Of a DNA stretch of 64,000 bases, positions 381 through 35,700 are shown one piece after another. This DNA comes from Phoronis australis. Taxonomy: Eukaryota > Animalia > Phoronida. The stretch covers positions 124,001 to 188,000 of the forward strand of contig NMRA01000579.1 in the NCBI GenBank assembly GCA_002633005.1. Reading direction: 5' to 3'. The notes below the pieces were generated by a model. The model was given only the letters and a program-made list of their open reading frames with translations, was not told where the DNA came from and did not search any database. Position 1 is the stretch's first letter; every line of letters starts with the position of its first letter. The translations under genes were made by a program, and so were the position numbers.

Positions 381-3300
381 CCCAGATGAGCTGGTTATAC
401 AGCCTCCACAGGTGGTCCACAAACAGCAGCTGCATACAGCCAACACTGTGAAGACTAAATCTCTCTCTACTCACTTGGGTGGGACCAATGGTTTGAGTGA
501 TGGCCAGACACACCCTTACACATCCGTCAATGGGTACATGGGTGAGGCCAAGGTAATGAGACATTGGCGAGATGACATGAGATTAATAAGTGTTTCTAAG
601 GAGACCAAACATTTGTTTGGATAAATTATTGAAGCTGGAACATTTGCGGAGCTATGAAAAAAAAGCGAAAATGGAAGCCGCATGGCTTTTTTGTTCCTAT
701 GAGGATGTATACCTTTGAGCGATTTTCAGTAGATGACTTATTCAGAGGGGAGATAATTCAGCCTATACAACTACAATGGTGTGCTGCTCGTGAGTGCATT
801 GAAACTTAGGCTGAATACTGATGCCTTGAATTGCACTGATTCATGGTCCCTTTAAATCTTTATATGGTGTGGAAATAGTCGAGTCACTTTTGGTGCAGTT
901 GTTGAAATCATAATCAGGATAGTTTTGTTAATCAAATGCGTTTATTTTTCTCGGCTAAATGTGTTTTTTTTCTATCTATTTCAGCAATTTTTAGTTGTTT
1001 TATTTCACTAATGAGTTCAAATTGCATGCACTAAATTTAAAGCATGTGTTCATTTAAAACTAACTGCCATCGTGGCTATTATTTTATTTGTATTTGTCAA
1101 AACCAAATGTTTATAAATGTCAAGGGAACTGCCCCTTGTATGATAATAATGGTACTTCATGTTTTAGATTTACTGTAGTTATTTTAAAATAACTTGCGCT
1201 GTATTGCACAGGCTCAACATGGCGGCAGTAGCAATACTGTCCCGAGGTACATGAAATGCTGTGATGTGATTGGTTCATAGACGTGGTGTTGTCTGCTGCA
1301 GGTTTTGTGACATCATGGCAGAAGCACCAATATCTGTTGCTTTGTGTTAACACAGTGGAAATGTAGAACATGTTTTTCAAAATGAATGCAACTTCATGTT
1401 TTAAGTTTTGAGTTTTCTAAATGTGTCCTTTATTAAACTCTTCTGGTTGTTTGTGCACTTTGTGGAGATTTTTCTATTAAATATTTTGTTTTATTTAAAA
1501 AATAATGTTGACAGTGACCTGGCATCTTTACTGACCTTATGACCTTCGCACTTCCAGAACCATGTCACAGCCAGCCCTCTACCTGTTCGAACATAACAAC
1601 AATGTCATACCATGGTAAGTAAATCTTGTTTTATCATGTCCATCATTTATAACTGACAGTTGAAGCTCCACCCCCTACCCATCTTGATGCAATTGCTTGG
1701 TGTACTTAAGAAGAAAGTCCAGATATTTATAACTAGAGTAAAATTTGACCGAACTTACCCAAAAACTATTTTCAAAATTTACCTGTTATCTGTTTTATAA
1801 GGCTTCAAACATTGTTACAATTGCTCATCACTTCTCCAAACATTTATCTAATGGCAGCTATGATATATTACTTGGAAATGATAAAGCATTTATTCCGTTC
1901 TTCTTATTTTAATGAAAACGCAGGGAAACAACAAAATTTCACTCATCCGCCATGTTGTGTCCTAAAATAGTGAGATTTTACTGTATTCTTCATATTGTTT
2001 ACGTCTTGTTTTGAAAAAGAGATTTAGAATGAATTTTAAACTGCTTTCCTCAGTACTATCCAGTTGTTTTAATGTCATTTACGAGACAATTTTTGTAAAC
2101 TGTTTGTTACAACTGAATGTTTTCATCCTTTGTAGGTATGACAACAATACTCACTCTAGTGCCATGTCTGTTACCCATAGTTATTCACATTTGAACAAAT
2201 ATGCAGTATACTCCAACAATGTCAGTCGACCACACGTGAGGGGACGAAGACCACGGAAGTCCCACGTAGATGGCACCGAAAAGCCACAGCCAGAGAAAGT
2301 CAAGCGCTCTGTGTCGTTTAATGCGGAGAATAAACCTGCGAGTCACGCACACCGCCGGACATCGTTATTCACCAAAGTGAGAAGCAAGTGTCAGATGACC
2401 GTTCAGAGATCCATTTCCTGCAGTCCAGCTACAACTGGTGGCATTACTCGAAGCTCATCCAGACTAACCCAGAGTAGTTCCGATGCGCGTCTGTCGTCCC
2501 ACAGATCATCATCGCTTACCAAAAATGCACGAAACAAACACCATAGGATGATACAGAGATCCGTTTCATATGACCCTACTGTCACCAATGGTGCTGGTCG
2601 AAGTCCATATATTACTTCTCCATTGATATTTGGGCACAATCGAGGTTACGGACCAAACAACAACAAAAACACCATCATCCACAACAACAACAACAAAAAC
2701 AACATCAGCAACAACAACAACAAATATCGACTTCACAACGGATGTTTCACTCCTCTCTCTGCACAAGCCAATCACCGATCGGACTTGGATATCTATTCTC
2801 TTCAAAATTGTGTGCCATACGGACCTTTGACCCGAGCCTCGATCTCTGGTCATGAGGTTGTGACCTCATCAACGAAGAAGCCAAGTCGTCAGAGCTCGTT
2901 CTCGGGATTTAGCAGTGCCAGGGCATGGATCCATGACCGGCCGCCCACATACATCCAGAGCAAAAAGTTGACTGGTCCAGTGAGCAGTTACAAGGTTATC
3001 AGTACACTGCCCAATGTCACTACGGTGAGTACACTAGAGATATGAGTGTGGTATGAGGTGATGTAGGCCAAGAGAGAGCAATGTTGCTCAAGGCTCATAT
3101 GTCTGGACCTGATAGGCCTGAGAGATCAGTCTACATTTGTTTCCTTATACGACCACTGACCTTTTCGTCTCTTATTAAATTTGCATGTTTTTGTCTTCTT
3201 TGATAAACTACTTTGTTCACAAGGTCAGGGTTTATGGCGTCTGTTGTCTGTGATTGGTCAGATTACCAATAGCGCCATCTGGCAGCATGAATGAAAAGGG

Positions 3301-4644
3301 ATATTGCATGGCTAACTGCTCCACATCACCTCATAAAGGAAGTTGTCATACAGCATTTTAGCCAATCAGAGGAGAGCTGAATCAGTGGTTGTGTAAATGT
3401 TACCGTGTGCTGGCCGTCTTTTCTTCATCTTCCAGTCAATGTCCAGAATATCGTATATTTGGCATTTGTTCACGTGGAGTGGATTAAAATGAACTATGTT
3501 GCATCTTGTTAGTGAGTTGCATTGTAACTTTTGATGCTAGTGGCTTAGTTTTGTTGTTGATTTGTTGATGTGTAAACGTGATGGCAGAGTGCACATTCTT
3601 AATGCCCCATGCAGCGCAATCTAAGGTTCATGTTTTTTGTAGAAGCCATTGTTTCGGTTTTTTTTACGGTCAGTTAGCGTTCTTTTTAAGTATAGTGCAA
3701 TCCGAAAGTATTCAGACAAAATGGCTCAGAATTCCCCTTCACGACGGCTGGGTGGAAGCCAAATTCACAATTCACAATAGTCTCCCCTGATGACTGAGAG
3801 TTAAGGGGAATTAACTGGTTGAATGAATAAATGAACATCTTTATTGCGGACTTTACAGTTTTCCGTATAGAGAACAATTATTATTTTTCCATTATCAAGA
3901 AAACAGCATTTTGTCAGATTCCTTTTGTCTTGCACTGATAAAGGCATGGACTGAATGGAGTTCACCGAATGATAATGACCAATGACAAATTTAAACTTAT
4001 TCCAGTTTGAAGTATGCGATTTTGGCTTGACCCAACTTAAGCTGCATGAGACATTAAGAATAAATAACCCACTTTAGATACAACATTGTGGTTTAACTCG
4101 TGTTGTTTTCATTTCCCCGTTCACGAAATTCATGCTTTGCATATCATTACGTGTTATTTTACAGGTATCCTCTGTCGCAATACCTGAGATCACAGTCAGT
4201 TCACCATCGCCATGCGTTAAACAGAATTCTTGTTTAGTTCAGCCTAAAGTGCGACAGGATCTTGAGTGTGTTTACGAGACAACTGATACCGACGGTCCTC
4301 CAGAAGCGAATCTTTCTGCCGACGAAAATGACTTGGAAATCTCGAATATTATGTCGTCTTGTCTTGATTTGAATGGGTCTGAAATTGTGGCAGAGACTTT
4401 TCTTGATGTTCAATCTTGTGCCACACATGAGACATCTGCTGTCATGTCGAAAGATGAAGATAACACTGCGATGCCACCGAAGGCCGGCGTCACGTGGAGT
4501 AATACGACTTTCTCTTTGAGGGAGCCGTGCACTCTGATAACATCGAACGGAAAATCAGTCAACCGTGACCTGACTCAGACTGAGCTGCTCTACCTGATGG
4601 CTCAAACAGAAAGCAAACACCACGAGATCCTGACGGAGCTTTGA
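381..4644 (+). CDS. 3' portion of an unidentified spliced gene; low-complexity Ser/Arg/Asn-rich region ending in class I PDZ-binding-like ...HHEILTEL*
   Basis: Phase-consistent GT-AG exon chain: 381-552 (PDELVIQPP...GEAK), 1212-1246 (AQHGGSSNTVPR), 1558-1614 (TMSQPALYLFEHNNNVIPW), 2136-3024 (YDNN...PNVTT, donor ACG|GTGAGT), 4165-4644 (VSSVAIPE...ILTEL*). About 543 aa. A possible further exon at 87-161 is uncertain. The 5' end is probably outside the window. Confidence 0.65.
2136..3024 (+). CDS. Large internal exon of the left gene (Ser/Arg-rich, poly-Asn)
   Basis: Lies within ORF 2011-3045. Acceptor tttgtag|G in phase 2 completes the TGG codon from exon 1558-1614. Donor ACG|GTGAGT is in phase 0. 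Confidence 0.7.
2655..2724 (+). repeat. (AAC)n-rich coding microsatellite (poly-Asn)
   Basis: aacaacaac runs encoding NNNKNTIIHNNNNKNNISNNNNK. Confidence 0.85.
4165..4644 (+). CDS. Terminal coding exon of the left gene, ends ...ILTEL*
   Basis: Lies within ORF 4132-4644. Acceptor ttttacag|GTA in phase 0 matches the donor at 3024. Confidence 0.7.
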   Translation, partial: VSSVAIPEITVSSPSPCVKQNSCLVQPKVRQDLECVYETTDTDGPPEANLSADENDLEISNIMSSCLDLNGSEIVAETFLDVQSCATHETSAVMSKDEDNTAMPPKAGVTWSNTTFSLREPCTLITSNGKSVNRDLTQTELLYLMAQTESKHHEILTEL

Positions 4645-8878: not shown

Positions 8879-11800
8879 TTACATGGTTTCCGTCAACAAT
8901 CCCACGTTAGAAACATCCTCGTCATGACTGGCTTTGGAAACGCCCTCACACACCTCAACTTCCTTTTTAACCTTAGTCATTACACCAAAGTTTAAGCTAC
9001 AATCTTCATCAATGTCAGTGTGATCGCCAATCAAATCAGCGTCATTTTTACTTGGTGTTCCATTGAGACTTGTTTCACCAAAACTGTCATGGCCAGAAGC
9101 ATCTTGCCCTCTGCTCTTCTTGCTCTCTGCCAGAGGAGAGTTGTCGTCGACTTCCTTCCTTTCAACAGATACTTCACAAGAAACCGAGTCATCATGACCT
9201 TTGACACAAGACACATGATTTTCACCTTCTGCCAAAGAAGAGTTCTGCCTTCCAACAGTCTCACAATCAATAACACTGTTTTGAATTTTTCCTGACTCAC
9301 CAGATAACTTAGAAGGATTTTGATCAACTGAGGTGGAAGTATTTGTCTTACTTCCAGGGCCTCCAACATCAACAAATTCATCTACATTACATTCTATACT
9401 TTCCTCAGAAGCAGCTCTAAATGTATTCGATGGCTTTCCATCATCGAGATGCGGGATTTTTGAACAACTTGAACCAAGCTTTTCAGTTGCAAGTCGCCTC
9501 TTGGACCGAATGAAAGCAACTCCGTGTGTGCGCATGTGCTGTCTTAACCCTGTTTCATCAGTGAACGAACGATAACACACCTGACATTCATAAGGGTTAT
9601 CACTGTCAATCTGTTTCGGCCTCTTGCTAGCAGCTGCAACTCCAGGTAGCAAAACGTTCGTTTCCACGACAACATCATAGTTTACGCCCACCTCTTGGTA
9701 GTATTTGTCAAGGTTCTTCACTTTGTGCACAATGAATAGATGTTTCTTCAGTGCAGGTTGAACTCTAAAGCAAGTACCACACTCCAGACATTGTATAGCT
9801 TCCTCTTCTGTCCGATGGATGACAATGTGCTCCTTGAAGCGCGTCCGATTGTCGCAGGTGAAGTCACACTTGGCACAACTAAAGACTGTCTCGCCCTCAA
9901 CTCGCAGCTTTCTCACACTCTGCGGGGGGCTGTCGTTCTTGACGCAACGCTCCAACCCAGACTGCTTCTTGTCCCCGTCGCCAGCGACATCTTTGGGTGA
10001 ACCGAGCGTGACGTTAACTTTTTCTACTTTATCCTCTTCTATATTGAACTTTTGAACCTTGTGTGCGCTGACCATATGGCGTTCTAAGTTGAACCTCCTA
10101 TCAAAAAGCATCGTCTTTCCAGCCTCGTGACATAGATAGCACCGGTATGCCTGACCTTTGCCCTCATGCACACGCTGCGTGTGCTCGCGGAGCTCTTCCG
10201 TGTTGACGTACGTCAGACCGCACAGCTGACACGAGAAATGCGGAGTGATTCCATGATCTGTCTTCAAATGTTGCCGTAGTGAATCCCACGACTCAAACAC
10301 TTGGTCACATTGTTCACAATCGTATGTCTCCACTCTGTACAAGTTCTCATCAGCTAGTTGTTCCCCATCCCCAGCTCTGTCATCGCTTCCTGGCCGCGTA
10401 TCCTCTGTGTCGTCTTTTAATGGCGTCTCGCTGGCAGCACCTGTTGCACTCGAACTACTCAGCCTCTTTTTCATCTGGTTTAGGTTCCTCCTCCGTTGCC
10501 ACTTGCACATAATCTGATGTTCAGCCAAGTCAGAAAATTCGGCAAAGTAAACGATGCAACAGTAACGACACACATAAATCTCATCGTCTTCATGCTTCGA
10601 TAGATGGCGCTTGAACCACTGTTGATTGTTGAACCGACGCAAACAGACTGGGCAGCCATAGCGCTTGTCTTCTTCAGACGGCGATGTCGTGATTGGCCCG
10701 TTAGATTTTGCTGGTGGTGACGATACCTTATCTGGTGATGGCCATGGGCGAATACTAGAAGTTTTAAGCTTTCCTACGGGAGGAGACCCACCTGCTGACA
10801 CAGTCACACCTGTGACTCCTTGACTGCCCAAAGGATGCACAGTCTGTAGGTGGTAGATCACCTCTGGCTTAGTCATAAAGACAAACATACACTTAGGACA
10901 CTTGAAGATCGTCTTCACCTGACTGGATTTTTTCTGCACCGTCAGCGACGACGTCCTGTTGGGATGACTTGCTTCTAGATGTTCTTCTAGATTTTGGCGC
11001 GACGAGTGCTCCGTGCCGCAGAAGGAGCACATTTCTGCAATGGGCGTGACGGAGTGATCCTCCTGTAGGTGTTGCTTCAGCTCTCGTTTCTCGCGGAAGT
11101 GACACGTGTGGCATATTTGACACAGGAACCTGAACTGCGACATCTGGTTCTGAATGTGTGCGGTCACATGCTTTTGATACAGGTCCTTATTTACAAGTAC
11201 AGTGGGCACGGCGCACAGCAGGCACTTGTAAACAATCAGTGGACGCCAGTTCTCATCTATGACACCAGAGTGCATTGAGGAGATGTGCTTAACGCAGCCA
11301 GCTTGGTCACTGGCCTTGAACGCCAACGGGCACATAGGACACTTGTAGAACTTCTCTGTGTGCGACGCCATAACATGGTCCACTAAGGGGCCTTGCTGCT
11401 GTTTGACGATGGAGCAGTGGTTGCAAATGAAGTAGAGCTTACGAGAATGATGTAGACATTTCTTGTGCACATGTTTCATGAAGATCTCAAAGGTGCCAAC
11501 AATCTCCTCGCCGCATTCCGGACAGACGAACGGTGCCTGTTGCGTGTGCAGTATCTTGTGTGCCTTCAGAGCGCACAGTGTTGGTAGCACTTTAAACTGG
11601 CAATACTGGTAGTCGCATACATAATGAGCTGCCACACTACCAGAAGGAGCAAAGTGATTTGCCAGGCTTTTTCTATCAGCAAAATTTGACTTACACATCT
11701 TGCACACAAACCCTTCAGTCAATTTCCCAGACTGCGTCACTGTCTCACATTCAGTTCTTTGCTTTATTGAAGACTGTTCCATTAGTGAGCCTGTGGCTGG

Positions 11801-12996
11801 CACTATCTTATATGTTTTATTTGATGGTTGATTACTGGATACAATCCATCCTGTCAGTGAATTCTTTGAAATCTCTTTTCCTTTTGAATTCTTGCTCGCC
11901 GGAGGTTCTGCTTTGCTGGCAGCAGTTACAGGACTGCTTAACGGAGGCACAGACTCGCAGACGAGGGGATTTGGGTTGTTGGCCGGGGATTTGAGCTTAC
12001 TGTCTCCTGGTCCTAGCTCGCTGGCTGAGGTTTTGGGCTTGATGGTTCGAAGTCCAGAAACCCCAACCAGAGGTACGGACATGCTGATTGGAGGCTTGGG
12101 GTTGCTTATTGGAGATACAGTGTCGCTGCCTGGGGAATTGGAGTTGTTGACTGAAAGAATGAGGTTATTGGTTCCTGGCTTGGTTATGTCAAAGGACATT
12201 AGATTAGACAGTGACTGTTTGAGGACTTCGTCGCTGTTTAAATATGAGGAGTCTTCATCAGGCGGTTTTACGGTAACATTCCACGCGACAAGAGTGTCGA
12301 TGCTCGAGAAGCACTGGAGATGAGACGACAACATGCACTTGTTGTGAACAGTCACGAACGTGCAGCAGCCGCGGCAGTAGAAGCAAATTCTGCACGTTTT
12401 ACGAGACAAGTGCAGCTGGAGGCTGGAAGGGAATACAAACGACTCCCTACAATACGTGCACGAGAATGGCGTCTCAAGCTGATCTGGTGCACCCAAGGAC
12501 GACACGGGCGGCGGCAATTTCACATGGTTGTGACAAGCTAGAAAAGTCTTGGTCATTTTTTGCAAGTCCTTTGGCAATTCTATGTTTGAGTCGGAAGACT
12601 TCAGTTTTACTATCTTCCTTATTTTGGGACGTGGCTTGGGGCGGGCGGCAGCTTTAACCACCTGTGGTGAGGCTGTGAGGCTGTTTGACACAGTTGAGGT
12701 CCTGGGCATGATGCGCCGAGGGGTTGATCCAGTCCTTATGTTAGACAAGCTCGCAGTTGGCACGGTGTTCTTAGACACCACTGTCTGGTGCTGCTTTTGT
12801 TGCTTTTTATTGGAAACCTGAAGATGGCGCTCCGTAACATCCCTCATGTGTCCAATATGATCTTGCTGCTCCAATGTACTGCTGTCACTGGCTGCGCTAG
12901 ATGAAGCAGTGTGAAAGGTCAAGGCCGTGTTATACTCCTCGTCGACTTTCTCGGTCTTTATAACAGGTGGTAGGTTTTGTGCAGAGTCTTCAAAGG
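8879..12996 (-). CDS. ZNF532/ZNF592/ZNF687-family C2H2 zinc-finger protein, main coding exon
   Basis: ORF of 1422 aa with about 19 C2H2/C2HC-type motifs. Family signatures: SLQLHLSRKTCRI...HNKCML (cf. RRSVRI...NKCSLL), FYKCPMCPLAFK, HLFIVHK, HMRTHGVAFIRSKR. The likely acceptor is ctctttcag|CC at 12996 (phase 1), so the first ~50 aa of the listed ORF are probably intronic. Confidence 0.92.
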
Positions 12997-14793
12997 CTGA
13001 AAGAGTTAAATAACAGCTGTTAGTAAAAACAACGACTGATTTCAACCGGCTCGACAAGTTTCGGCATTTATTAAAACACCTTCCTCTGACAGAAGAAAAA
13101 AATGGCCACCTTGCTAGGCCCAACAACAAGTAATAGTACACAGACACACAGTCAGTTACAGGCGAGTTACCGCTTTATGATACGCGTTGCACAGCGGTCT
13201 TAACAACTGAATTTGCATAAACCATGATTCACATTTGTGGCACAGACATTTGTAAGCCACGATGAAACCGAATCCTGAGCAGTTTGGGATTTGAAATAAT
13301 ATGTACACAGGCATTCACAAGTCCGACACATAACTGCAGTTGCACGCTTTATTAGGACAATTGAAAGTCCTGACTTTTATATAACTGGGAAAAGCGTATG
13401 AACCCAGCTCTGCGAAAAATAAACTTTTAGTTTCGACCACTTTCCGTCATAATGGTCTGAAATCTTACTCAAAATGGAAATGCTGAGGATTTCTGGCCTT
13501 TGGGCATAGGTGGTTCAAAATGTTGGATTGACCTGGCAGGTCATTATACTCACAGAATATAGAACATAAGCAATCATGATGAAATGTTTTAGTTCTTCAA
13601 AAACCAAGAAACCTGAGAAAGGAAAATGTTGCGCTTCATATGATTACTGGTCTTGATCATAAGTTTTTAGTCCTTTTGGCACGACATTAAATTGTCGTGA
13701 CGGATCGGCCCAAGTTGGCAGGCAGACAACTCTGGGCAGTCACAAAACCACAAGTTCTTCCACTCAATTAATCTTTATTGTACTTTAATCTGACAGCATT
13801 AGGATCAGAGTTGCCTGAAGAATCAAGAAGTTTGATTTCTTTTTCTTCCCTTTTTGTGGGGACAGAAACCAAGCCAGTGATATTAGTGTATTCAGTGTAT
13901 ACTCCTTCAAGCCCCTATGTTCGCTTCACAGTCAAAATAGCGTTATGAGTTTGTTTTTTCAGCTCAAAGCAATGTTAAAAAACGATGCTTAAATTGACTA
14001 TGAACCGCTTTCCATCACAATAACTAACCTCTCACTCAGACCCCTTACCAATTACGAAATTGTTCCTTAAATTCAAAATACAGTAGGTATGACTCAAGGG
14101 CTTGAAAAGAGCTGACGGCTCGTTATTGCTCTGGACCAGGCTTTGCAAGTCCATTCGCCACGGCGCACCGTGAGATTAGCTGAGCATGATCTCAAGGTAT
14201 AACATGCCGTCAGCTCTTAGCAAGTTCAGAAATCTCTTTCTCTCTTTCATTCAACTGCACAGTGCTTCAGGTGACTGTCTTGTCCTGCAAATCAAAACGT
14301 CATTAAAACCTGCGCTTTCTGTCAAAAAAGCAAGTTTCGATTAAGGAACACGACAAGACCAATTTTGTAACGGTAACTGACCCAAATGAAAACTTGCAAT
14401 CTTGACGTGATTTCTGAAAAGCGGTTTTAATGCCGTTTTAAACATATTTTTCTAATTCTTAACTGGAGAACCAAAACCAACAGCTAGAAAACAATGTACT
14501 CATGTGAAAGGATCAATGTTATGTTGAGTGATGAGACAGACCAATTTTTGAATGAACTCATTGCCATTTTCGAATTTCAAGTGGATTAATCACAACAAAA
14601 TCCACAGCAATCTGACACGTTTATTAACCAGCTGAAGGATTGTTCTTGGTAACACTAAACAAACCTATCACTGTAAGGACATTTTTCAGACCCATTTTGT
14701 AAAAGGAAAGGGCCTACGTCGATCTTCATTTTTTAGCTACCTACACTAGGCAAAGTGCAGCTTCAATAGTACGTCACTACATAACCAACTTAC

Positions 14794-17984: not shown

Positions 17985-18283
17985 ATGGTGGCTTTTGCGC
18001 TCTGTTTTATTGACGTTTTGTTGTTCATTGCTCCGACGTTGTGCGCCTCGGATGTGGAGTCTCCGGCGGAATACGTTAGCGTTGCCGGAGTTGATGATCC
18101 ACCCGGTCATTTGAAACCACTGGGGTCCCACAGGCCGCCTGAGTCACCAATCGACGTCATCGACTATACCCCTGACCCAGTATGGTTTTATGAAAATTAC
18201 GTTAAACTCGGCAAACCATTGCTAATGAAGGGTCAAGCAACCAAAATCCCCGCGTTTCATCTGTGGACGGACGACTATCTCAG
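17985..18283 (+). CDS. JmjC gene exon 1 (signal peptide, PPGHLKPLGSHRPP, FYENYVKLGKPLLMKG)
   Basis: Hydrophobic N-terminus MVAFALCFIDVLLFIAPTLCA. Donor CAG|gtaggc in phase 2. Confidence 0.9.
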
Positions 18284-21200
18284 GTAGGCCTGTTGTATTT
18301 AATTAACGTTGCAGTTGTGAAGGGGGTTATGTTCATTGGTCATAACCATCTGTTCCATCTGTACGACTTTGAGTATGTTACAGATATGTCTTTGCATGGG
18401 AAATTTTTAGAACACCTGTGTTTTGACGGGCATCAGAGACAGATATCTACTGTAGCGTAACACTATGCAGTCATACTAGACTAGTCATAGACTGGTGCCA
18501 CTGTCTTGAACTGGTCACTGTGTAGACTATGGCCTTCCCACAAGCCATCCATATGCTGAAAATTTTTCGGCGAAATTTCCACCTCACACTGATCAAACCA
18601 TCATCGTCATGTTGCAATAAGTATCTTTTGCACGTAAGCAGTTGGTGTCTTTAAGTCTTCCCAACTTGAACAAAAAATACTCCTGCAATCAAACTTTTTT
18701 GAGTAGTCCTCCATTCAGTCGCAACTGGCCATTTTTGCATTGTTCGCGCCAGAGGATGTGGCGTCATTTTTGTGTTTAAAGACCCTGAAAAAGAGATGGA
18801 GTGGAGTACATGCAACTTAAATGTCAGAACACTTGCACATTTTCGCACTATTCAGATAGACCATGATATAAGAGCTGAACCAGTTTCATCAACTAAGTAA
18901 TGAGGCCGCTATTCGCTATTCAGTGATTGCCTAGTTCTTTAAATCGGGGATTCATTATATGCAACTAGTAGTGCCCACAATTTGTTGTCATGTCCTTAAT
19001 GATAATTGCTGGTTTCATGTTTGTTTTCTCTTGTAAAAAAAAATCAAGATAGTGTTCAAACTGAGATAACTGGACCACATGCCCAAATGTTACATGTTAA
19101 GGTTTTGTTAACTTTCAGGTATCTGGGTCTAATTTTTATACTTTAAATTTTTTTGATATTTGCTATTTTACTGTTTGAGAACTCAATATAAATGTGTATT
19201 ATTGCAAACTTGGACTAGAAACTCATATGCCTAAACCGTAATTGTGCTTGAGCGCAGACTGTTATCGATATACTTATCTTGAGTTCGTTTAAGTCAAACT
19301 TAACTTAGAGTACGGTTTTGACCCTGATGTTAATTGAACAATACAGAAGTTTAGTACGGACGAAAGTAGATAAAATTGACCAAGTTAGTGCTTTCTTATT
19401 TTTCAGTGAAAAGTTTGGCCAAACTAAAATCCAGGTTGAAGTTGGAAAAAAAGAAAATCGTGAAGATGATGTCCTAAATGTCAAACTGGACAGTTTCCTC
19501 AAATACTATGTGAAAAAAAATATTTATATGGTGCAAGATCTCACAGACCCTATGAAAAGTAAGTCAGTGATGTTAAATTTTCAAATTTTTTAGGGATAAC
19601 TTTGGTAAAACTCTAACGACTGTGGAAACCAAGAAAAAAGAAACGCGTGACCCCAATGACGGTCTCTACGTTAAGCTGTCGACTTTTCTCGATTACTATC
19701 GCCACAAAACTATATACATGGTACAGGACCTTACACCCGAGATGATGAGTGAGTACCTGTGGTAAAAGTTCTTCCTTTTTGGGGGACTGAGAAACAATTA
19801 CTTAAGGACCCAGGTGAGCACGAAACCATGGTTGAAAACTTTAAACTAAAATAAATCAAGGTAATGCCCCCTGCTGGAGTAATAGTGAACTACTTTCGGT
19901 TTACGACTTAATGATGTGAATGCTAATAAAAGAAACATTTTGAAACAAACAGTTCCACCCCAAAGCATAAACCAAGACTTCAAATTGCAAAGGTGGTGCC
20001 TGCATGGGACTTTAAACTGCTGTTTACACTTTTAAAAGATTTCGAGCCTGAAGTTTAATTTGTTAAATTTTGTTTGAAGGCAGTTATAACAGTGTGAACC
20101 ATGGTTAAGTAATTAAAAAAGTTTTTGATCAGTTTTGGAGATGTTTCTTAGTCCACAGCATGTTGTGTCCTAAATGAATTTTTCTATGTTTCTGCTGGAG
20201 ATTTATTTATACTTTTTATCATTGACCATACCTAGGCGGGTGTTATTGTAGTTTATCAAATGAACATAACAGTTGGCTGTAAACAGTAATTGCACAGATG
20301 TCGAGTCCTCAGTAACTCAGTGGTGAGAGCACTAGACCGGCAATCCAGAGACCTGTGGTTTGTTTCCCAGTGGGGGTTCCTGATTTTTCTGTGTTTATTT
20401 GACATATTTCACTTCTGGCGAACCTCAGCGTCTTTATATTTGTTATTGATGTTGTTTGACCTAGAATTTTGTAAGACCGCTAAAATTCAAACTAACCCAA
20501 TTTTGTTGACGTCATACATGGAAGCAAGACATGAACTTTGATCCAAGGATGAAATTCCCAAACAAGTGTGTCGTTGTATTCTCTACAATAATCGCAAATC
20601 AATTTTTTTCAGAAACGGTGATTGAATGTCCATGGTTATTGCAAGGAGTTGTGACTTGGGGGAGGTCAAAGGTCATGATATGTTATGATGAAAAAGATTG
20701 GTTTAGAAGCATGCGCGCACCAATTTTTGAGAATGTGTACCTTTTACTAAGATTCACTTGGTGCGTTCAGAGCTATGAATTGCGCATTCGTCGACTTTTG
20801 ATAGTTCTTGCTTTTTGGTGGACTTTTGTCTCGTATTCTACTTTATTTCGTAGTTTTTGGTTTTCTGAGGCAGACCTTTTTGTCTACTTCGCCAAATGGG
20901 GGGGGGGGCTCGTTTGAGCCACCCCTGGCTGTGCACATGAGAAGTGACGAGAATATTGCAAAACGATGTCTCCGTAGTGACATACAACACTATAAGAATA
21001 CTGCCCCACGTTATTGGTGATGGAGGCTCCCGAGAAATTGGGAAACTCAGTTTGGACACCCTATTTTTAAAATCCAGGATGAACCCCTGATCAGGGGTGC
21101 TCACAGCAGTTCTAGTTTCTTGTGAGTTAAGTGAGATCACGCTGACCCCCTTAGATATCCTCATCCGTGGTGTGAATGGTGAACATAATGCTGTGCAGAC

Positions 21201-24200
21201 CTGTGATTGGTTAATTGAATGATTACAGAGGACTTCCACCTGCTGAAGTGTTTGTTGTGTGGTGGCTTCACCGAGTTCCTCAACACTGCTGTCATGTGGT
21301 TCAGTAGCGGGGGAACCAAGTCAGTGCTGCATAATGATAACATCGACAACATAAATTGTATCTTTCAAGGAGCCAAGGACTTTGTATTTATAGACAGGGT
21401 AAGTATTTGGAACACTGTTCAAGTAGTCATGGTCCTTGCTTTCTTGGGTAATTGAATGCATTCACATTATTACACAGCAAAAGTCAAGTCTCTTACTTGT
21501 CCATAAAGTTTTATCTTGAGGAAATAAAATTGCTCTGTTATGTGCGTGCGTGCTTGCTCGTTTGTTTGTACGCATGTCACATGTTGCATCTCTCACCCCT
21601 TCGACACGACATTTACTCAGAACATGAATCTTTTTAATAGCTGAAGACTTATTGTTTGTGGGAACATAATTTCCACATAGCAGAAAACATCTAGAAACAC
21701 CTGCTGTAATTCCATTGCATGAACTTTTCATTAACATTGAATACCCGCATGGGTGGACTTATTAGTCAGGGAGCCCAGACAGCTCATTTCCATGTGTGTG
21801 GGTTATAGCACAAGTTTAATTAGATAAAGACAAATGATTGCGAAGTACTTTGCCTGAGTGACAGTGAATTGATTTTCATGATTCAAACACTGATTTCAGT
21901 TACTTGTTTGTGTTTGGCATACATCAAGAACCATTAGTTTTTGAAAATGTGTAGTTTTTCAAAATGAGCTATTTGATGCTTTGACAGGCGGGATTGTTCA
22001 TTAGATTTTGTGACTCTGCGCATCATGAATGATAATCGTTGGGCGATGTTTAAGTCGTGCCACCTCTTGCAGAAAGTCCCTTGTTCGAGCCTTGGTTGGG
22101 AGACAGAGATCTTTTCAGACTTAGCTATAGGTCACGTGATGTTACCAACATATGATTTGTATTGTTCTCCCTGGACGTCAGCTTTATTGAAAAGTCGTTG
22201 TTAACTGCGCTGGAGCTGAGATTTTTTCCTCTGCAATAAGAGTCGATGGTGATTTTTTCCTACTCCTACCCACTACAAAACAGTTCATCGGATCCTTTTA
22301 TAAGAAAAACACAATTTTGTTAGTTTCTGACTTCTGCAGACAGAGCCTGAAATATGAAGATCAGCTCAGAAATTTATAGGCGTCGTGAGATTTTACCATT
22401 AATCGTCGTGACCAATGGTACACTGTTGCCCAAACCCAGTTGTTGCCGGCTGTGATGAGCTAGATAATGTTGACCTGATATCACTTTGTGTGTTGATTAG
22501 GACATGACAATTCAATCTTCTCTCTGAGCTGGCAAACCCAACTTATTGCACATTAAAAATATCGTGTTATGAGTTCATTAGATAGTTGAGCGGCCCTGGC
22601 CAAGTTAATGTTGCGGAATCCAGGGAGTAGAAATAATTCCATGGACAGGTCTCTTTTGTCACCTAACATCTGCAGTCCTGGACCAGTATATGCAAAACCC
22701 ACGGTACAAATTTCATTAGTGTACCCCTAAACATCGTACGCAAGCCGAAAGTATTCCATACCTGGTGACTAAACTGTAAGCTGGCTGGCACCAAACTGCG
22801 CTCATGCATCCATGGTCCAGGTCTGGAGTTTTGTGCTCAAGTCTTCAGTTGTGTCTTCCTGTATGTGAATGAATGAATTAATTTATAAATGATTACTATG
22901 CTTTTACCAGTAGATGGAGCTGGAGGTGATTCTAACAGACACCGTTCATCATATTTGTCGTCTTATTTTTGTAGAAACACAAAGATGCGATAGAGGGCAC
23001 AAAATTTGTCCATGATAAAGGCTACAGTGAAGTAGACGTGGAGAGCGTCGATATGTACAAGTTCCCTAACCTACGAGACATCCCGTGGTACAAAGCTCGC
23101 ATGGAGAAAGGCGACTGCTTCTTCATACCCATGTAGTGAGTAGGACTGCGTGTTATTGATCTTCACAACATGGATTTGCAATGTCCATTAACTAGACACC
23201 TGTAATATCTTATATTCTGAGCTCTGCTTGTGCATTACAATTTGTATATCGTGTGTAGAAACCCTAGCTTTCCATTTTCAAAAGTAGGGAAACTCATCTG
23301 AGCAGTTCACGGTAAAGTTTTGGGGGTGTTCTGTTTTGTCCTTCGCTGATTTATGCCACATTTCTGTTTCGCCCATATCTTGCTGGACCAAGCAAAAGAT
23401 GGGCGTCACATTCAGACAGTGAACTGCTGCTAGAACATGGCTGCTGCATTAGGATTGTCGATTGATTTGTGGCCAGAATATATCGAACTTGATGGGTTGT
23501 AGTAATTTTTGGTAATTAAACAATTATAATAGAATTATGGTATCTACTGCTGAGATATGAAAATGTTGACTTTTGTGCTCATCTTTACGACAAACCACTC
23601 TTGACTAAGTATTAGGAAAATTGGCATGTGTGTTCCTACTGGGAAGAGCATAGCTTGCGATGATTTTCGGATTTTCTCCAATTGCCCCCTAGAACCAGTA
23701 TTTTTCTTGACGGCTTCTGTATCTCTTAGACCTTTTGCAGAATCTTTGTTAAATTTGACTGGTGTATTTCTAAGAACGTGACTACAGATTAGGAAAACTT
23801 TTGGACAGATCAGATTGCCATTGCTTCTCCAGTTGCAAATATAGTCTCTTGTAATTTACACTATTATTTCAGCTGGTACCATCATGTCCACTCATTTGGT
23901 GACACGAGGCGTAACCTGGCAATCAACATCTGGTTTTCACATCTGTTCTGGTTCAACCATACCGACTGCGACGTGAAAAAACCACTGCCGGAGACACAGG
24001 CTCTATCCGACTTCAAGATGGCTTCTAGGACTGAAATGCAGAGGTATGTGTCTACTGTCACTCAATGTGGTGAACTTCACATGATCTGCCTCGGAAATTT
24101 GTGATCGTGTTGGTTTATAAATTTTCCAATCATTCTTACGCAATGGACAGAAGGGTCCCATATTTTGATAACCGGTTTCATGTTCGTTATTCAATGAAGG

Positions 24201-26239
24201 AATTGTGGTTCTTTAAATGCGGGGATCACTGTGAGCGAGTATTACTCCGATTTCTCGTTCTTACACACTGCCAATATGGTGGCTAAAGTGGGTTAAGTAC
24301 GGTGCGTAATAAAGTCTTGTCAGTTATGAGAATGTGTTAATACAGTAGCCAAATAGTATTGAACAAACAACTAGTAGTTTTGTTGTCCAGTTTGAGTTTT
24401 GCTGTTCATTCTCGGTGACGTGGGAAGACTACGCTGACAAGTTATACGGCTGTCGTCGTAGTGGGGAACTATGGGTCATTTTCTGAATACTTTTAGCTTG
24501 TACTGTAAGTTTATCGTAATTGTTAAAGGGATATTGTTTTTATTATTACTTTTGCTATTTGCATCCACCACTATGAGTACAGTCATTGTTATTAATTTGT
24601 TACCTTTATGTAGAAAATAAATCTGATACTAAATAAGGCGATCCAGATCCTCCCAAGGATACTATTGTTTCACGAAATGTAGAATATAAATAGGTAAATA
24701 AAACAACAAGAATGGATCAACTGAAATTTTCGGATGTAATAACGTCCTTTGTCAACAGAAACAGAAATAAATTTAAGTAAAATCAAACACTATATGACAA
24801 TTGACATTTAAGATAACTTTATGGTATTTTCTCAAGGATGTCTTTCTCCCGGCATCATTTGCCACCACAAAACTAAAAAGCATGCATGCATATTGGCTTC
24901 TTCTTATTGTCCTTACGTGTGTGCAACTGTTAGACGGTGGTGTTTGGTGAGTTGTAAAGAATAAAACGCTGTGCTTTATTCAGGAACATCCTACTGACCA
25001 ACTTTGAGGGCCTACAAGTGGTGACCTTCGAGGAATTCAGAGCCGTTCTGGTCCAGCTGTACCCAAGCCTTGAAGAGGATGATGCTACCCTGGAGGAAGT
25101 AAGTTGTTCGCTCGGATTGCTGGGGTTTATTGTGGGAAAGGGAATACCAACCTGGACGTTTTGTACCTGCGTTCGTATGTTTAGAAGTGCCATAGGCAAA
25201 TTTTCAAAATTTCTCAGAATTTGCACTCGTCTTTTATCCAAGGCCTCGTTTATCTAAACCTGTCTTTGTATCAAATGTTGAAATCAGAGGTCACAACATG
25301 GGATGCAGCTTGCCTCAAGGAAAAATCTTGTTCTTTAAGGTAGCTCATAACCTATTGATAACTATGAATTTAATAAAGCATAATAATGGTTCTAGGTGGT
25401 CAGTGCACTGGGCCCACATGAGCGGCCTGTAATTGTTTTTTTTTTTTGATGAGGTCCTCTTTTTTCGTCTCCCTTGCTTCAGAAAAATTCATTGTAGTTT
25501 CGGAAAAGAGGCCCTGGGCATGATTTTGGTTATTTCCAGTCCTTATTTATCCAGATTTCCACGAAGCTAACCGGGACACAGTTACGGAAGTTGTATGAAT
25601 TGTGTCTGTATTTGATCAGTGGCGTGGAAGTGGGTGTGTTTCTTTGTAATATCCAAATCGAAGATAATTTTAAGATTAAAAACAAAGTGTCATTCAGTTG
25701 CTCACGTCAGCTTTCACTTTTTAAAGGGCCATTATTGGCGAGAAAAGTGATTTTTAAAAATCGGCTTCAGCGTGGACTCAAACCTCGAACTTCTTGGTCG
25801 CCATCTAATATTTCAATTGGTGGAGCTAAATGCCACTCCACAGGTGGCACTGTGTCCTTAAGTGTGTTTAACTGGTGAATATGTAAAGCAGTCAGTGGCG
25901 AGAATTTGCGATTTGTACACAACAATTTTGGGTTGTTTGTTTTATAGCTCTAGTCTATCCCATCCAACAATAATCCAAAAACGTGTTTTTTGTCTGTGAA
26001 ACCGGTTACGTCTCTTTAACTGTGACTCGTCGTCTTCGTTTCAGATGTTTGGTTTCATCGATAACGACAAGGACGGCATCGTGACATGGCCCGAGCTACA
26101 GTACTTTGACATGGAGGCCGCGTTGGACTACTTTCCAGGGTTGTTTGATGATCCTGAACAGGCTGAGGACGATGACAGGGATGATGGGAAGTTAGACGAG
26201 GCACGTGAGACTGAGGAAACTGTGAAAGATGAGCTGTAA
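17985..26239 (+). CDS. Signal peptide + JmjC (cupin-like, JMJD5/JMJD7/TYW5-related) 2OG-Fe(II) oxygenase + EF-hand + KDEL; predicted ER-luminal
   Basis: Exons 17985-18283, 19407-19558 (or 19594-19748), 21229-21398, 22975-23135, 23873-24043, 24984-25098, 26045-26239. All are GT-AG and phase-consistent, totalling 1263 nt = 420 aa with exon 2A. Motifs: WFSSGGTKSVLHND, G-x-K, GDCFFIPMYWYHHV, EF loop DNDKDGIVTWPE, terminal KDEL. Confidence 0.92.
19407..19558 (+). CDS. JmjC gene exon 2A (mutually exclusive candidate)
   Basis: tttcag|T GAA...AAA A|gtaagt, encoding EKFGQTKIQVEVGKKENREDDVLNVKLDSFLKYYVKKNIYMVQDLTDPMK. 152 nt, phase 2 to 1. Confidence 0.9.
19594..19748 (+). CDS. JmjC gene exon 2B (tandem paralogous, mutually exclusive candidate)
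   Basis: tttttag|G GAT...ATG A|gtgagt, encoding DNFGKTLTTVETKKKETRDPNDGLYVKLSTFLDYYRHKTIYMVQDLTPEMM. 155 nt, phase 2 to 1, no stop codon. Confidence 0.85.
20305..20377 (+). mobile_element. tRNA-derived SINE head or tRNA pseudogene (intronic)
   Basis: A-box-like taactcagtggtgagagc, anticodon-arm-like ctagaccggcaatccag, degenerate B-box ggtttgtttccc, acceptor-like gtcctca/tgggggt. Confidence 0.55.
21229..21398 (+). CDS. JmjC gene exon 3 (HxD iron ligands, 2OG-binding Lys)
   Basis: DFHLLKCLLCGGFTEFLNTAVMWFSSGGTKSVLHNDNIDNINCIFQGAKDFVFIDR. Donor AGG|gtaagt. Confidence 0.92.
22975..23135 (+). CDS. JmjC gene exon 4
   Basis: ttttgtag|KHKDAIEGTKFVHDKGYSEVDVESVDMYKFPNLRDIPWYKARMEKGDCFFIPM|gtgagt. 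Confidence 0.92.
23873..24043 (+). CDS. JmjC gene exon 5 (distal His)
   Basis: ttttcag|WYHHVHSFGDTRRNLAINIWFSHLFWFNHTDC...EMQR|gtatgt. Confidence 0.92.
24984..25098 (+). CDS. JmjC gene exon 6 (degenerate EF-hand-like segment VTFEEF)
   Basis: attcag|NILLTNFEGLQVVTFEEFRAVLVQLYPSLEEDDATLEE|gtaagt. Confidence 0.88.
25761..25834 (-). mobile_element. Degenerate tRNA-derived SINE head
   Basis: Reverse strand reads tagctcc...gaggtttgagtccacgctgaagcc (A/B-box-like). Confidence 0.3.
26045..26239 (+). CDS. JmjC gene last exon (canonical EF-hand, acidic tail, KDEL)
   Basis: tttcag|MFGFIDNDKDGIVTWPELQY...EETVKDEL*. Confidence 0.92.
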   Translation: MFGFIDNDKDGIVTWPELQYFDMEAALDYFPGLFDDPEQAEDDDRDDGKLDEARETEETVKDEL

Positions 26240-32180: not shown

Positions 32181-32732
32181 TTAACTGCTCATCAATGATT
32201 CCACTCTGTTATTCACGTATTCTCGCGCCGGGTTGTAGTACTGATCGCGCATGCTGGTCACAGCCGAGGTCTTCCTCACAGCGTCCAGCATCGGAAGAGC
32301 GATACGATCATCCAGCAGTACGACTATTGCCACCACCAACAGGAGCACTGCAAACACGATGGCCACCAGAGGAATGCCCCGCATCTCCTCTGTCCTCTCT
32401 GGCGTCTTTGTTGTAGAAATGTCCACTTTGTTCTCCATCTTGTTATCCACGCCATTGTCACCAGATGGACCCGGTGCAGCTTGCAAGTCGTCCACGACGA
32501 CGGGCGGCTCAATGACATCTGGGATCTCTAGCGTTTTCAAGTCTCCTTCTTGTTCGCCAGATGTTGACTCTGCGACTTCTCCAACATGATTACTAGTGAC
32601 ATCTAGTGATGGTTCAATGTCGTCGACTTCTTTTACCTCCTCATCGGCTAGTTTGCCATCAACAGCATCTTCGGGCTCAGTCTCAACAGCATTATTAACA
32701 GCTTCAACCACAATCTCCTCTGTATGTTGCTC
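32181..32732 (-). CDS. FRMD5: FRMD5-like last exon (acidic linker, transmembrane helix)
   Basis: ORF 32181-32711 extended to the acceptor at 32732. TM segment [22 protein letters not shown]. Confidence 0.9.
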   Translation of the reverse strand, partial: EQHTEEIVVEAVNNAVETEPEDAVDGKLADEEVKEVDDIEPSLDVTSNHVGEVAESTSGEQEGDLKTLEIPDVIEPPVVVDDLQAAPGPSGDNGVDNKMENKVDISTTKTPERTEEMRGIPLVAIVFAVLLLVVAIVVLLDDRIALPMLDAVRKTSAVTSMRDQYYNPAREYVNNRVESLMSS

Positions 32733-35700
32733 CTGTAAGAATGATGTAAATAAGTTTTACAAGGACTCCAAGTGATTTATCTTAAAACCACTCACATACG
32801 TAGCTATCTTTAGCAATTGTTAAACAGGCGTCTAAACTGATGGGAAAGAATATCCATAGTACGTGTCAGGATTCCTAACTTTACATGATTACACTACGGA
32901 CCGCCTGGCCTTTAATGACAGCTTTCTACACCCATATTAGAACTTAAAGTGGCTATAGATGCATCGTCCTGAATTTAGACCTTGAACTAATTCTAAAACT
33001 GGGGCCCTTTCCAAGAAATTGTCTTCAACTCATTTTTTACTGAAGTCTAAGATTTGTCTAAGTTTTATCTTAAAATTGACTGAAATTTAAGATTTGTCTT
33101 AGCTAAGTCAGTTTTCTTGGAACGAGCAAAAATCAAACTTTTTAAAAATTTTCGAGCTCTGTTAGCATTGCTGTAAATGCCCACAATTAAAGAAAATATT
33201 TCTGATGGTTGCTACAGTAAAGAACTTGAACGTGGTGAACAAATGAGAAATAACAATTTCACTTGCCTGCCACATTGTGTCCTAATTAGTTGCATTTCAT
33301 CTCACGTTATAACGAGCTGTTAATTGTCAATACCTACCTGAGGGGATTCCACTCTTTCATCGGTCACCTCTCTCTCCGACAAGTTTTCAACGGACACATC
33401 GGCCTGACTATCGGAATCGGTGGCTGAAAAAGTGAAGTTTAAAAACATCAAGGATATTAAATTCAAATATAATACATTAAGAGCACAAATTCGTAAAATG
33501 AGCGAAGTTGTATTTTTTTTCTGGCCATATTCTATTACCTTCTAGTTTAATTTTAATCTATTAAACTTTCATCTGGCAATAATAGTAATCTCTTGCAGAA
33601 AATGCAAAATGGAATTCTGCTACGAAACGGGCACGCATTTTTTTACATGGCAAAAATATTGTGTTATAATACAGGGAGATTTTTGTGTACAAGTAAACTG
33701 AAATTTTCTTTTTACAGCAAACTATGGCATAAAAAGACGACCATATCAACTTTACTATAACCACATTAGGTATACCAAAGTTGCGACGACGAATCGAATC
33801 GCAATGTAGGAGCAACAAATGTCGATATCCATACACCACGACCTGTTTCAACTTGTTAGTTCCAATTTTCGCCATAAGATGTCTTACGAAGTAACGAGTT
33901 ACTTGCACATTTTGAAGAGTTTTATTGAGATATTGGACAAACAAACAGCGCAGGATCATTCACTGGTTGGAATCTTATCATTTTCAACATTTTTTTCCTG
34001 CAATTGGTACGAGTGATAAGTTAGCTATTTATATTTGAGAAAAAATGTATTAATTTGACAAACAAGAATGAAACCAATCAAATTCCTCCTAAAGAGGATG
34101 AAATAGAATTGAAGTCCTAAAAATGTGTATCAACCCACCCCTAGTCAATATCGTTATAAAACACGTACATGCAATTTTGCCAAAACTCCCTCGGCTGTGT
34201 TCTGTCAAACTGTCCCTACATATTAAGCGTGTCCACTCTTAAGATGCAGCTCACATTTCACTCACCTCTGGTGATCTCGATGCGAGGTTTCACAGGACGT
34301 TTCTGACTGAATCTCCTTTGAAGAGTAGACGATGGTGACCTGACAGAAGTAACACAACACACGGTTACATCGAGTTTGAACGTTCACATTACACCACATT
34401 GTCACTTAGCGTAAGTGATTTTACATCATGAGTGTCACTTAGCGTAAGTGATTTTACATCATGAGTGTCACTTAGTGTAAGTGATTTTACTTCACGAGTG
34501 TCATCCAATATGAATAAGATGGCGTGTGATAACAACGGTTGAAACTGAAACGAGTGACTAAGCATTCTATGTACGTGTTAGTAAAATTACTGCAAGGAAG
34601 GAAATATTAAACTGTTACATACAAACGACACATTTATTAAGCATTTCCTATAACTTAAGAGGCGATGTTAATACCTAAGTTATGAAACCGTAGTGGCACA
34701 TGAATTAAATATACAAAAATTGAACCAATTGTTCAATAACTGTCAATTAAAATTAGCTTTTAACCTACATCTACAGAAATTATGTATAGCTCATCTAACA
34801 TTAATAATGGCTGCACTTGATTTACTTTGTTGGTTGAGGAGGGTCAACTGGCTAAGGCACCTGATTGGTTGTTAAACCACAAAGCATCATCGAGTACCAA
34901 TCAGATGTGTTAGCCAAATGACCCGTATGAACCGGAGAGAATCAAGAGCACCCAATATGTATATAAAATTCGGTATCTTTTGATACAAATAATGCCCACT
35001 ACTTGTGCAAAGTGATATCGTCAGCAGCAATTCCAGCTTAAAAAGTGTACACTGTACAAATGAATATTTTACGCCAAGCTAAACTACAGAACCCAAATTG
35101 TTGATAAATGATTGGATATGGCACCCAACCTTGACCTTTTAAACTTTAGTCTTTTTTCTTAAAGTGGCAAAACGTCATTGAACTCAAGAATAAGTAAACT
35201 GACTTTTGTTTGTCAAGGACTCCAGATCATAATATTTGCTCATCAGACTCAGCTGTATGTAAAACCCAAAACAAGAATGATAAACTCAAAAAAGTGAAAC
35301 AGACTCTGAGATGTATAGAGTCAGTACTTTTATGAACTTGTTTGAAAAATGGTATCCATTTATCTTTAATATTAAGTTCACACACTCTAGTGAAAAAATA
35401 TTAAGCAGTCATTTTCAGCTTAAAGTTCCAATGCATTAATCCAAATTTTAATATTCCGTAAAGCTGAAATCGTAGAGAGCCATTGCCTGCGAAACCAAGA
35501 CCACCCCAAAAATGGTTCACAGTTTAGACACCACGCAGAAGAGAGGTCAAGATGACCCCCCATCAGGCAGACCATTGGACAATATGACCCACAACTGACC
35601 TGGTGAAGTCTACGCTGCTTCTCTTGTGAGACGCGCTATATGAACACACCTCATTCTGACTGCGGCCACTGAAAATTGGACAAGGATATGGCTTGAAAAA

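Follow-up and report, generated by a model that had tools for sequence, protein, structure and literature searches.

A candidate pair of mutually exclusive twin exons in a predicted ER-luminal JmjC oxygenase gene of Phoronis australis

We analyzed a window of 64,000 nucleotides from the phoronid Phoronis australis (contig NMRA01000579.1, positions 124,001 to 188,000); positions given below are those of the window. Its plus strand carries a seven-exon gene, whose junctions are all defined by RNA reads, taken from three runs (X2, X3, and X4) of a single study, with ~18–19% of each run read. Exon 2 is present in two copies, 2A and 2B. The spliced frame runs open from the hydrophobic N-terminus through to KDEL at the C-terminus, for 420 residues with 2A and 421 with 2B. 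The features of the gene are as follows.

17985..18283, plus strand: coding portion of exon 1, with the ATG; N-terminus hydrophobic and signal-like; start of Cupin_8; donor joined to 2A by 22 reads
19407..19558, plus strand: exon 2A, 152 nt, the dominant copy; residues 101–151 of the 420-aa form
19559..19593, plus strand: spacer of 35 nt; the donor of 2A (GTAAGT, matching the consensus) precedes a candidate branch motif and the acceptor of 2B; read-through meets a stop in frame
19594..19748, plus strand: exon 2B, 155 nt, the derived, rarely used copy, with one additional codon
19749..21228, plus strand: remainder of intron 2, with sense-strand read-through in X3 and X4
21229..21398, plus strand: exon 3; W174, S182, H185, D187, and K200 are metal and 2OG sites by alignment; Cupin_8 at E 2e-06; junction reads
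22975..23135, plus strand: exon 4; DSBH core; Cupin_8 at E 1.6e-04; junction reads at both ends
23873..24043, plus strand: exon 5; distal metal histidine H264; junction reads
24984..25098, plus strand: exon 6; beginning of the helical C-terminal domain; junction reads; open spliced frame
26045..26239, plus strand: coding portion of exon 7; an EF-hand-like loop is followed by an acidic tail, KDEL at the C-terminus, and the stop; junction reads

The predicted protein contains a Cupin_8 (PF13621) domain with an intact HxD...H triad. Exon 1 has a hydropathy of 2.4–2.8 across its first windows, from which we infer a putative signal peptide; it matches Cupin_8 weakly (E 0.089), and a search of it against longer proteins returned a single match. 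The EF-hand-like loop of exon 7 gave an EF-hand_5 match at E 0.012, under the curated cut-off. Location in the ER lumen is a prediction with family support, as KDEL-type C-terminal ends are found in 94 of 158 relatives. An earlier note, made from the sequence alone, had described the product as an ER-luminal JmjC oxygenase, and the signal-like N-terminus, the KDEL end, and the intact HxD...H back this as a predicted assignment. Elsewhere in the window, an open frame of 1431 aa at 8879–13174 on the minus strand encodes many C2H2 zinc fingers, while open frames of 359, 188, and 191 aa at 1966–3045 (plus), 4078–4644 (plus), and 32181–32756 (minus), respectively, had no Pfam match at E 0.001.

Relatives of the protein were found in sponges, placozoans, cnidarians, molluscs, annelids, arthropods, echinoderms, amphioxus, and tunicates, the closest at full length being two Lingula proteins that are 48–49% identical. 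A protein-atlas search matched only automatically named Cupin_8 clusters, and no characterized member of this oxygenase family was found.

The two copies of exon 2 have the anatomy of an exchangeable pair. Each is preceded by AG and followed by GT, is entered in phase 2 and left in phase 1, and is free of internal stops; both donors match the consensus, as does the 2B acceptor. Aligned, 2A and 2B share 28 of 51 residues, with a score of 120; shuffled sequences average -16 and score 33 at most, so that 0 of 10,000 shuffles reach the observed value. Within the block encoding IYMVQDLT, six of eight codons differ and every change is synonymous. Neither length (152 or 155 nt) is a multiple of three, and a transcript with both copies is frameshifted, with a stop at codon 158; omission of both leads to a stop at codon 126 and retention of the spacer after 2A to a stop at codon 162. 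On recomputation, the coordinates, splice sites, phases, identity, and synonymous codons of the earlier note all proved exact, and the frameshift that it expected with both or neither exon was borne out by the stops at codons 158 and 126. The 35-nt spacer (19559–19593), visible in the sequence, had not featured there. 2A and 2B thus show the vicinity, homology, similar length, and compatible splice sites and phases by which mutually exclusive exons (MXE) are recognized in the available part of PMC5740500. Neither a third copy of exon 2 nor a duplicate of exon 1, 3, 4, or 5 was found within the window by tblastn and family profiles.

We then examined exon choice in the RNA, where depth was low and a junction was listed from a threshold of 3 reads at 2 starts. 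Exon 1 is joined to 2A (18283–19407) by 10, 2, and 10 reads over the three runs, 22 in all, and 2A is joined to exon 3 (19558–21229), bridging over 2B, by 3, 1, and 26, or 30 in all. Against the 22 reads for exon 1–2A, the junction that would bridge over 2A (exon 1–2B, 18283–19594) is not among the best 15 of 17 joints in the three runs, and 2B–exon 3 (19748–21229) did not reach the listing threshold in any of them. Within 19330–20229, loose read ends were observed only at the two 2A sites and not at the 2B acceptor, and no 2A–2B joint is listed there in the three runs at this low depth and threshold of 3 reads. In X2, 15 of 20 reads lie only partly on 19330–20229, with 13 listed at 2A sites; depth on 2B amounts to 34, 60, and 58 letters in three bins (152 in total), ends at ~19748, and is zero on either side. 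By arithmetic, these letters appear to be two reads of ~76 nt clipped at the 2B donor, their far ends not displayed and maybe from one molecule; another source could be a transcript in which 2A and the spacer are retained ahead of splicing from the 2B donor, with an early stop. X3 and X4 each leave at most about one partly aligned read unexplained. In a further run, X1 (contigs, share 0.05), nothing aligned to 19330–20229, which speaks neither for nor against 2B. Taking 2 to 4 reads against ~54, the 2B share is ~4–7%, with an upper bound of 11–16%.

According to the available part of PMC5740500, a validated MXE pair requires a bridging read over each exon. A bridge over 2B is present and one over 2A was not seen, which leaves 2A and 2B as candidate mutually exclusive exons short of validation, with exon 1–2B as the decisive junction. 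The swap of two isoforms proposed in the earlier note stands as to its anatomy and is so far unsupported as to routine use of both copies, with 52 junction reads for 2A and no 2B junction listed. 2B-spliced reads, whose absence the note had named as half of what would count against its proposal, are nearly lacking in the sampled conditions.

Divergence between the copies points to an old event. Nucleotide identity is 94/150, with 37, 36, and 21 of 50 identities at first, second, and third codon positions, and dN is 0.37 with a dS of 1.5–2.2, third positions being near saturation. Estimates of dN/dS are 0.23 (our own NG86), 0.17 (library NG86), and 0.24 (LWL85), and pN/pS is 0.44 (bootstrap 0.27–0.69); a maximum-likelihood dS of 11.9 was saturated and was left out of the selection estimate. 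Nine columns are conserved in at least 90% of the 158 relatives, and both copies keep every one of them; the 2A/2B differences are concentrated in columns that vary across the family (permutation p 0.00045). These values support purifying selection on both copies after an old tandem duplication, as the earlier note had proposed. In simulations of neutral drift, a divergence of 0.05 substitutions per site left the invariant residues, frame, and splice dinucleotides all intact in 15% of cases; the share fell to 2% at 0.1, with none intact (0 of 4,000) at 0.2. Set against the observed dS of at least 1.5, these rates indicate that 2B was translated and constrained for nearly its whole history.

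The duplication also appears specific to the lineage, given that 2A and 2B share residues rare in the family (T106, V125, Y133, and T146, each at ≤5%) and are each other's best match, with 28 identities versus 26 and 23 for the best outside rows. In a tree of exon 2 (47 rows, 50 columns), they group at 71/91, under the starred threshold. Polarized against relatives, the differences show 2A agreeing with them at 13 positions and 2B at 4, with 5 unclear, and the branch to 2B is longer (0.98 vs 0.17 for 2A), making 2B, on sequence comparison, the derived and faster-evolving copy. The family profile scores 2A at 66.7 bits and 2B at 55.2 bits, the latter exceeding only 4% of the 158 family members, a biased comparison in that those members trained the profile. 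The 2B peptide alone, used as a query, had 0 matches among 1.84 billion representative sequences.

Among relatives, no exon-2 isoform pair was found in the 30 clusters examined, and no relative protein examined contains the exon-2 motif twice. Amphioxus offers a parallel at the neighboring exon. Branchiostoma floridae isoforms X1/X2, in the pairs P0010/P0126 and P0125/P0127, are of equal length and differ at 13 and 12 residues, respectively, within one block (residues 149–199) that matches exon 3 here, not exon 2, and includes residues beside the HxD motif. As in 2A/2B, the swap is confined to one exon-sized pre-catalytic/catalytic block, and these protein isoforms suggest an independent mutually exclusive duplicate of the neighboring exon.

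To place the swapped segment in a structure, we used a relative's predicted model (49% identical; pLDDT 91.8) that stands in for both spliced isoforms. JMJD5 was its best match (E 1.5e-19, rmsd 2.5 Å, 27% identity), aligning over the whole JmjC domain. By alignment, E111 is equivalent to JMJD5 E238 and Y140 to Y272, and residues 113–121 correspond to the beta3-beta4 loop bearing Y243; in JMJD5, per the accessible text of PMC5862942, the target arginine is bound by E238 and Y243 and 2OG by Y272. E111 and Y140 are kept in both 2A and 2B. From 2A to 2B, the loop changes by V112T, G113K, N117T, E119D, and one inserted proline, and within the model's core confidence is lowest there (pLDDT 78, residues 91–100 of the relative). 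Among the 40 nearest relatives, 39 share G113 with 2A; across the family it is replaced in 48 of 158, which places the 2B loop within natural variation. By homology, exon 2 would thus carry the substrate glutamate and the 2OG tyrosine, both kept, together with the substrate loop, which is changed. The earlier note had set this segment before the DSBH core and supposed that it shapes the substrate cleft, and the alignment with JMJD5 does place substrate- and 2OG-binding positions there, again by homology. A difference in substrate specificity between the isoforms is possible, with the key glutamate and tyrosine identical and only the loop and flanks changing.

The predicted protein has the features of a JmjC 2OG/Fe(II) hydroxylase: a DSBH fold (from the relative's model), the HxD/E...H triad, and the 2OG-binding Lys/Tyr. 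In common with JMJD5, JMJD7, TYW5, and FIH, it has Cupin_8, HxD...H, and equivalents of JMJD5 E238, Y272, W310, S318, and K336, to which it adds the signal-like N-terminus, a helical EF-hand-like C-domain, and a KDEL-type end. Unlike JMJD5, it has a basic KKE-R loop, and no Tyr, at the position of Y243; regarding orthology to JMJD5, identity is 26–27% (for a relative), and the "JMJD5-like" names in databases are automatic. JMJD8 likewise combines a signal peptide with a JmjC domain of the same clade, and its location in the ER lumen, predicted here, is shown in the part of PMC5684140 available to us. By the same source, His replaces the metal-binding Asp in JMJD8, which has no domain beyond JmjC, whereas the predicted protein keeps D187 and has a C-terminal domain and KDEL. 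D187 and the extra C-terminal domain speak against an assignment as JMJD8 orthologue.

Among ER-luminal 2OG oxygenases, the collagen prolyl 4-hydroxylase alpha subunits P4HA1 and P4HA2 would be a parallel, through mutually exclusive homologous exons. They belong to another oxygenase family than the predicted Cupin_8 protein. The available portions of PMC9098426 and PMC8106077 treat P4HA1 splicing or expression and do not mention mutually exclusive exons. Exons 4a/4b of OGDH (PMC7969005, as available) are closer in arrangement, being likewise paralogous and adjacent, with a donor-to-branch distance of <50 nt and a frameshift on joint inclusion; OGDH differs in a longer intron with distant branch points 25–41 nt from the donor, where the entire spacer here is 35 nt, and in that the upstream junction of the second exon is not yet observed in the Phoronis gene.

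U1 and U2 assembly and NMD form the general background of splicing and decay for such an arrangement. A donor-to-branch distance below ~50 nt is the proposed limit for joint assembly of U1 and U2 in the available text of PMC7969005, and that of PMC5740500 reports donor-branch proximity in 57 (9%) of 629 human MXE clusters. With an entire spacer of 35 nt, the Phoronis pair falls within this limit; the best branch motif places the A ~12 nt past the 2A donor, a motif guess and not a mapped site. A spacer of 35 nt would leave no room for U1 at the strong donor of 2A to assemble alongside U2/U2AF at the branch point and acceptor of 2B; such a steric block would keep 2A and 2B from ever being joined, and 2A would win by default. 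The lack of listed 2A–2B joints and the dominance of 2A would fit, because occupancy of the 2A donor would block the 2B acceptor. Any product with both or neither exon would meet an early stop, and its removal by NMD would be a second layer. Some unsampled tissue, stage, or cell type may skip 2A and use 2B, yielding a 421-aa enzyme with an unchanged catalytic core, the same E238 and Y272 equivalents, and an altered loop, so that activity would be tuned rather than replaced. Long-range RNA pairing as the exclusion mechanism was also considered and is not above chance: for docking-site/selector pairing around 2A/2B, seven of eight duplex tests fell within the shuffled range, and the local fold was weaker than shuffles. 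The remaining duplex pairs 19740–19765 with ~21070–21130 (the 2B donor region and distal intron 2) at -24.2 kcal/mol, with 1 of 60 shuffles as low; as one of eight tests, it is not significant overall.

Intron 2 is also read through, on the sense strand only. Sense-strand depth over the spacer, 2B, and intron 2 is 4–13 in X4 and 1–5 in X3, and mean depth over 19750–20229 is 8.9 in X4, 1.5 in X3, and 0 in X2. Depth is 0 at 19330–19389, before the 2A acceptor, and in X3 and X4 the read-through begins exactly past the 2A donor, with the spacer read through unspliced at a depth of ~3.5–3.9. The unique parts of the other introns are near zero in X4 (0.11, 0, 0, 0, and 0 in five bins). All X4 reads in intron 2 share a single haplotype that departs from the reference at 8 substitutions and 1 indel, with none listed in 2B (P 0.08, weak), and retention in X4 may be allele-specific rather than regulated. 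Two AATAAA motifs lie at 19850 and 19925 in intron 2, near where X3 coverage fades (~20019), making intronic polyadenylation a possible source of the same picture. Depth over 20232–21143 of intron 2 is obscured by repeat reads: this stretch, 24488–24791, and 19203–19236 are intronic stretches that draw many both-strand reads with loose ends, from interspersed repeats transcribed elsewhere. The read-through would follow if competition between two donors delayed the splicing of intron 2; a decoy effect, intronic polyadenylation, or an allele effect could account for it as well, and the data do not separate these.

Taken together, we favor, at somewhat better than even odds, the reading that 2B is an old tandem duplicate of 2A, still functional as a mutually exclusive exon of minor use, restricted to certain conditions and kept apart from 2A by steric exclusion. 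Confidence in it rests on the dN/dS of 0.17–0.24, the kept invariant residues, the neutral simulations, the consensus donors, the absence of a listed 2A–2B joint, the X2 letters that fit two reads clipped at the 2B donor, the accepted exclusion by short donor-to-branch distance, and, weakly, the lack of listed X4 variants in 2B; against it stand the unlisted exon 1–2B junction, the ambiguous origin of the two X2 reads, the faster evolution of 2B, the loss of G113, the absence of matches to the 2B peptide alone, and the lack of an exon-2 isoform pair in the 30 relative clusters examined. The same observations bear on an unlikely alternative, in which 2B was long functional as an alternative exon, went out of use recently, and is in early decay, with the current reads being splicing noise and pre-mRNA. 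No 2B junction is listed in three runs, 2B is the derived, faster copy, and the simulations are compatible with constraint having lapsed over the most recent 0.05 substitutions per site (15% intact). That interval is, however, about one tenth at most of the age of the duplication, the donor and acceptor of 2B are still consensus, X4 lists no variant in 2B versus nine in the adjoining intron, and samples of one study only were read.

The read-through bears on another reading, which we regard as rather improbable: that 2B is mainly a decoy or poison element whose sites engage the spliceosome and detain intron 2 or extend 2A to an early stop, tuning the amount of 2A enzyme with little 2B protein made. 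The exact start of sense-strand read-through past the 2A donor in X4 and X3, with other introns at ~0 in X4, speaks for it, as does the intron between 2A and exon 3, which at 1670 nt and with read-through in X3 and X4, not X2, resembles the retained introns of >1 kb with decoy exons described in the available part of PMC6097662. The decoys described in that portion are non-coding cassettes, though, whereas 2B is conserved as protein; X2 shows no read-through, the X4 intron reads share one non-reference haplotype so that retention may be allele-specific, and intronic polyadenylation (AATAAA at 19850 and 19925) would look alike. A minor mutually exclusive exon, recent decay, and a decoy are not fully exclusive of each other. 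That the duplicate is an assembly artefact or chance look-alike is refuted and vanishingly improbable: only 94/150 nucleotides are identical with third positions near saturation, RNA depth is continuous over 2A, spacer, and 2B in two runs, and 0 of 10,000 shuffles match.

Twin exons kept apart by steric exclusion are a known arrangement, and the mechanism is not new. In the open-access literature, we found no report of mutually exclusive duplicated exons in JmjC genes, nor of an invertebrate ER JmjC protein with a signal peptide and EF-hand, and none of the best 10 of 1,856 open-access literature matches for a Cupin_8 protein with KDEL and a signal peptide contained Cupin_8. As a speculation to which we give a low probability, a pan-invertebrate family of ER-luminal JmjC proteins may have used exon duplication repeatedly to diversify the substrate pocket, at exon 2 in Phoronis and independently at exon 3 in amphioxus; the non-glycine loop of 2B, as in separate paralogues, might then let one gene switch between two substrate preferences, while the twin exon, as a decoy, would also hold back intron splicing and set the enzyme level.

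The twin exons of Phoronis probably encode an unannotated isoform in a widespread invertebrate oxygenase family, and the swap of a loop on a fixed catalytic core would allow a clean two-protein test of specificity. The compact 35-nt spacer offers a case for dissecting default exon choice and intron read-through. Finally, B. floridae gives a hint of parallel exon duplication within the same family.
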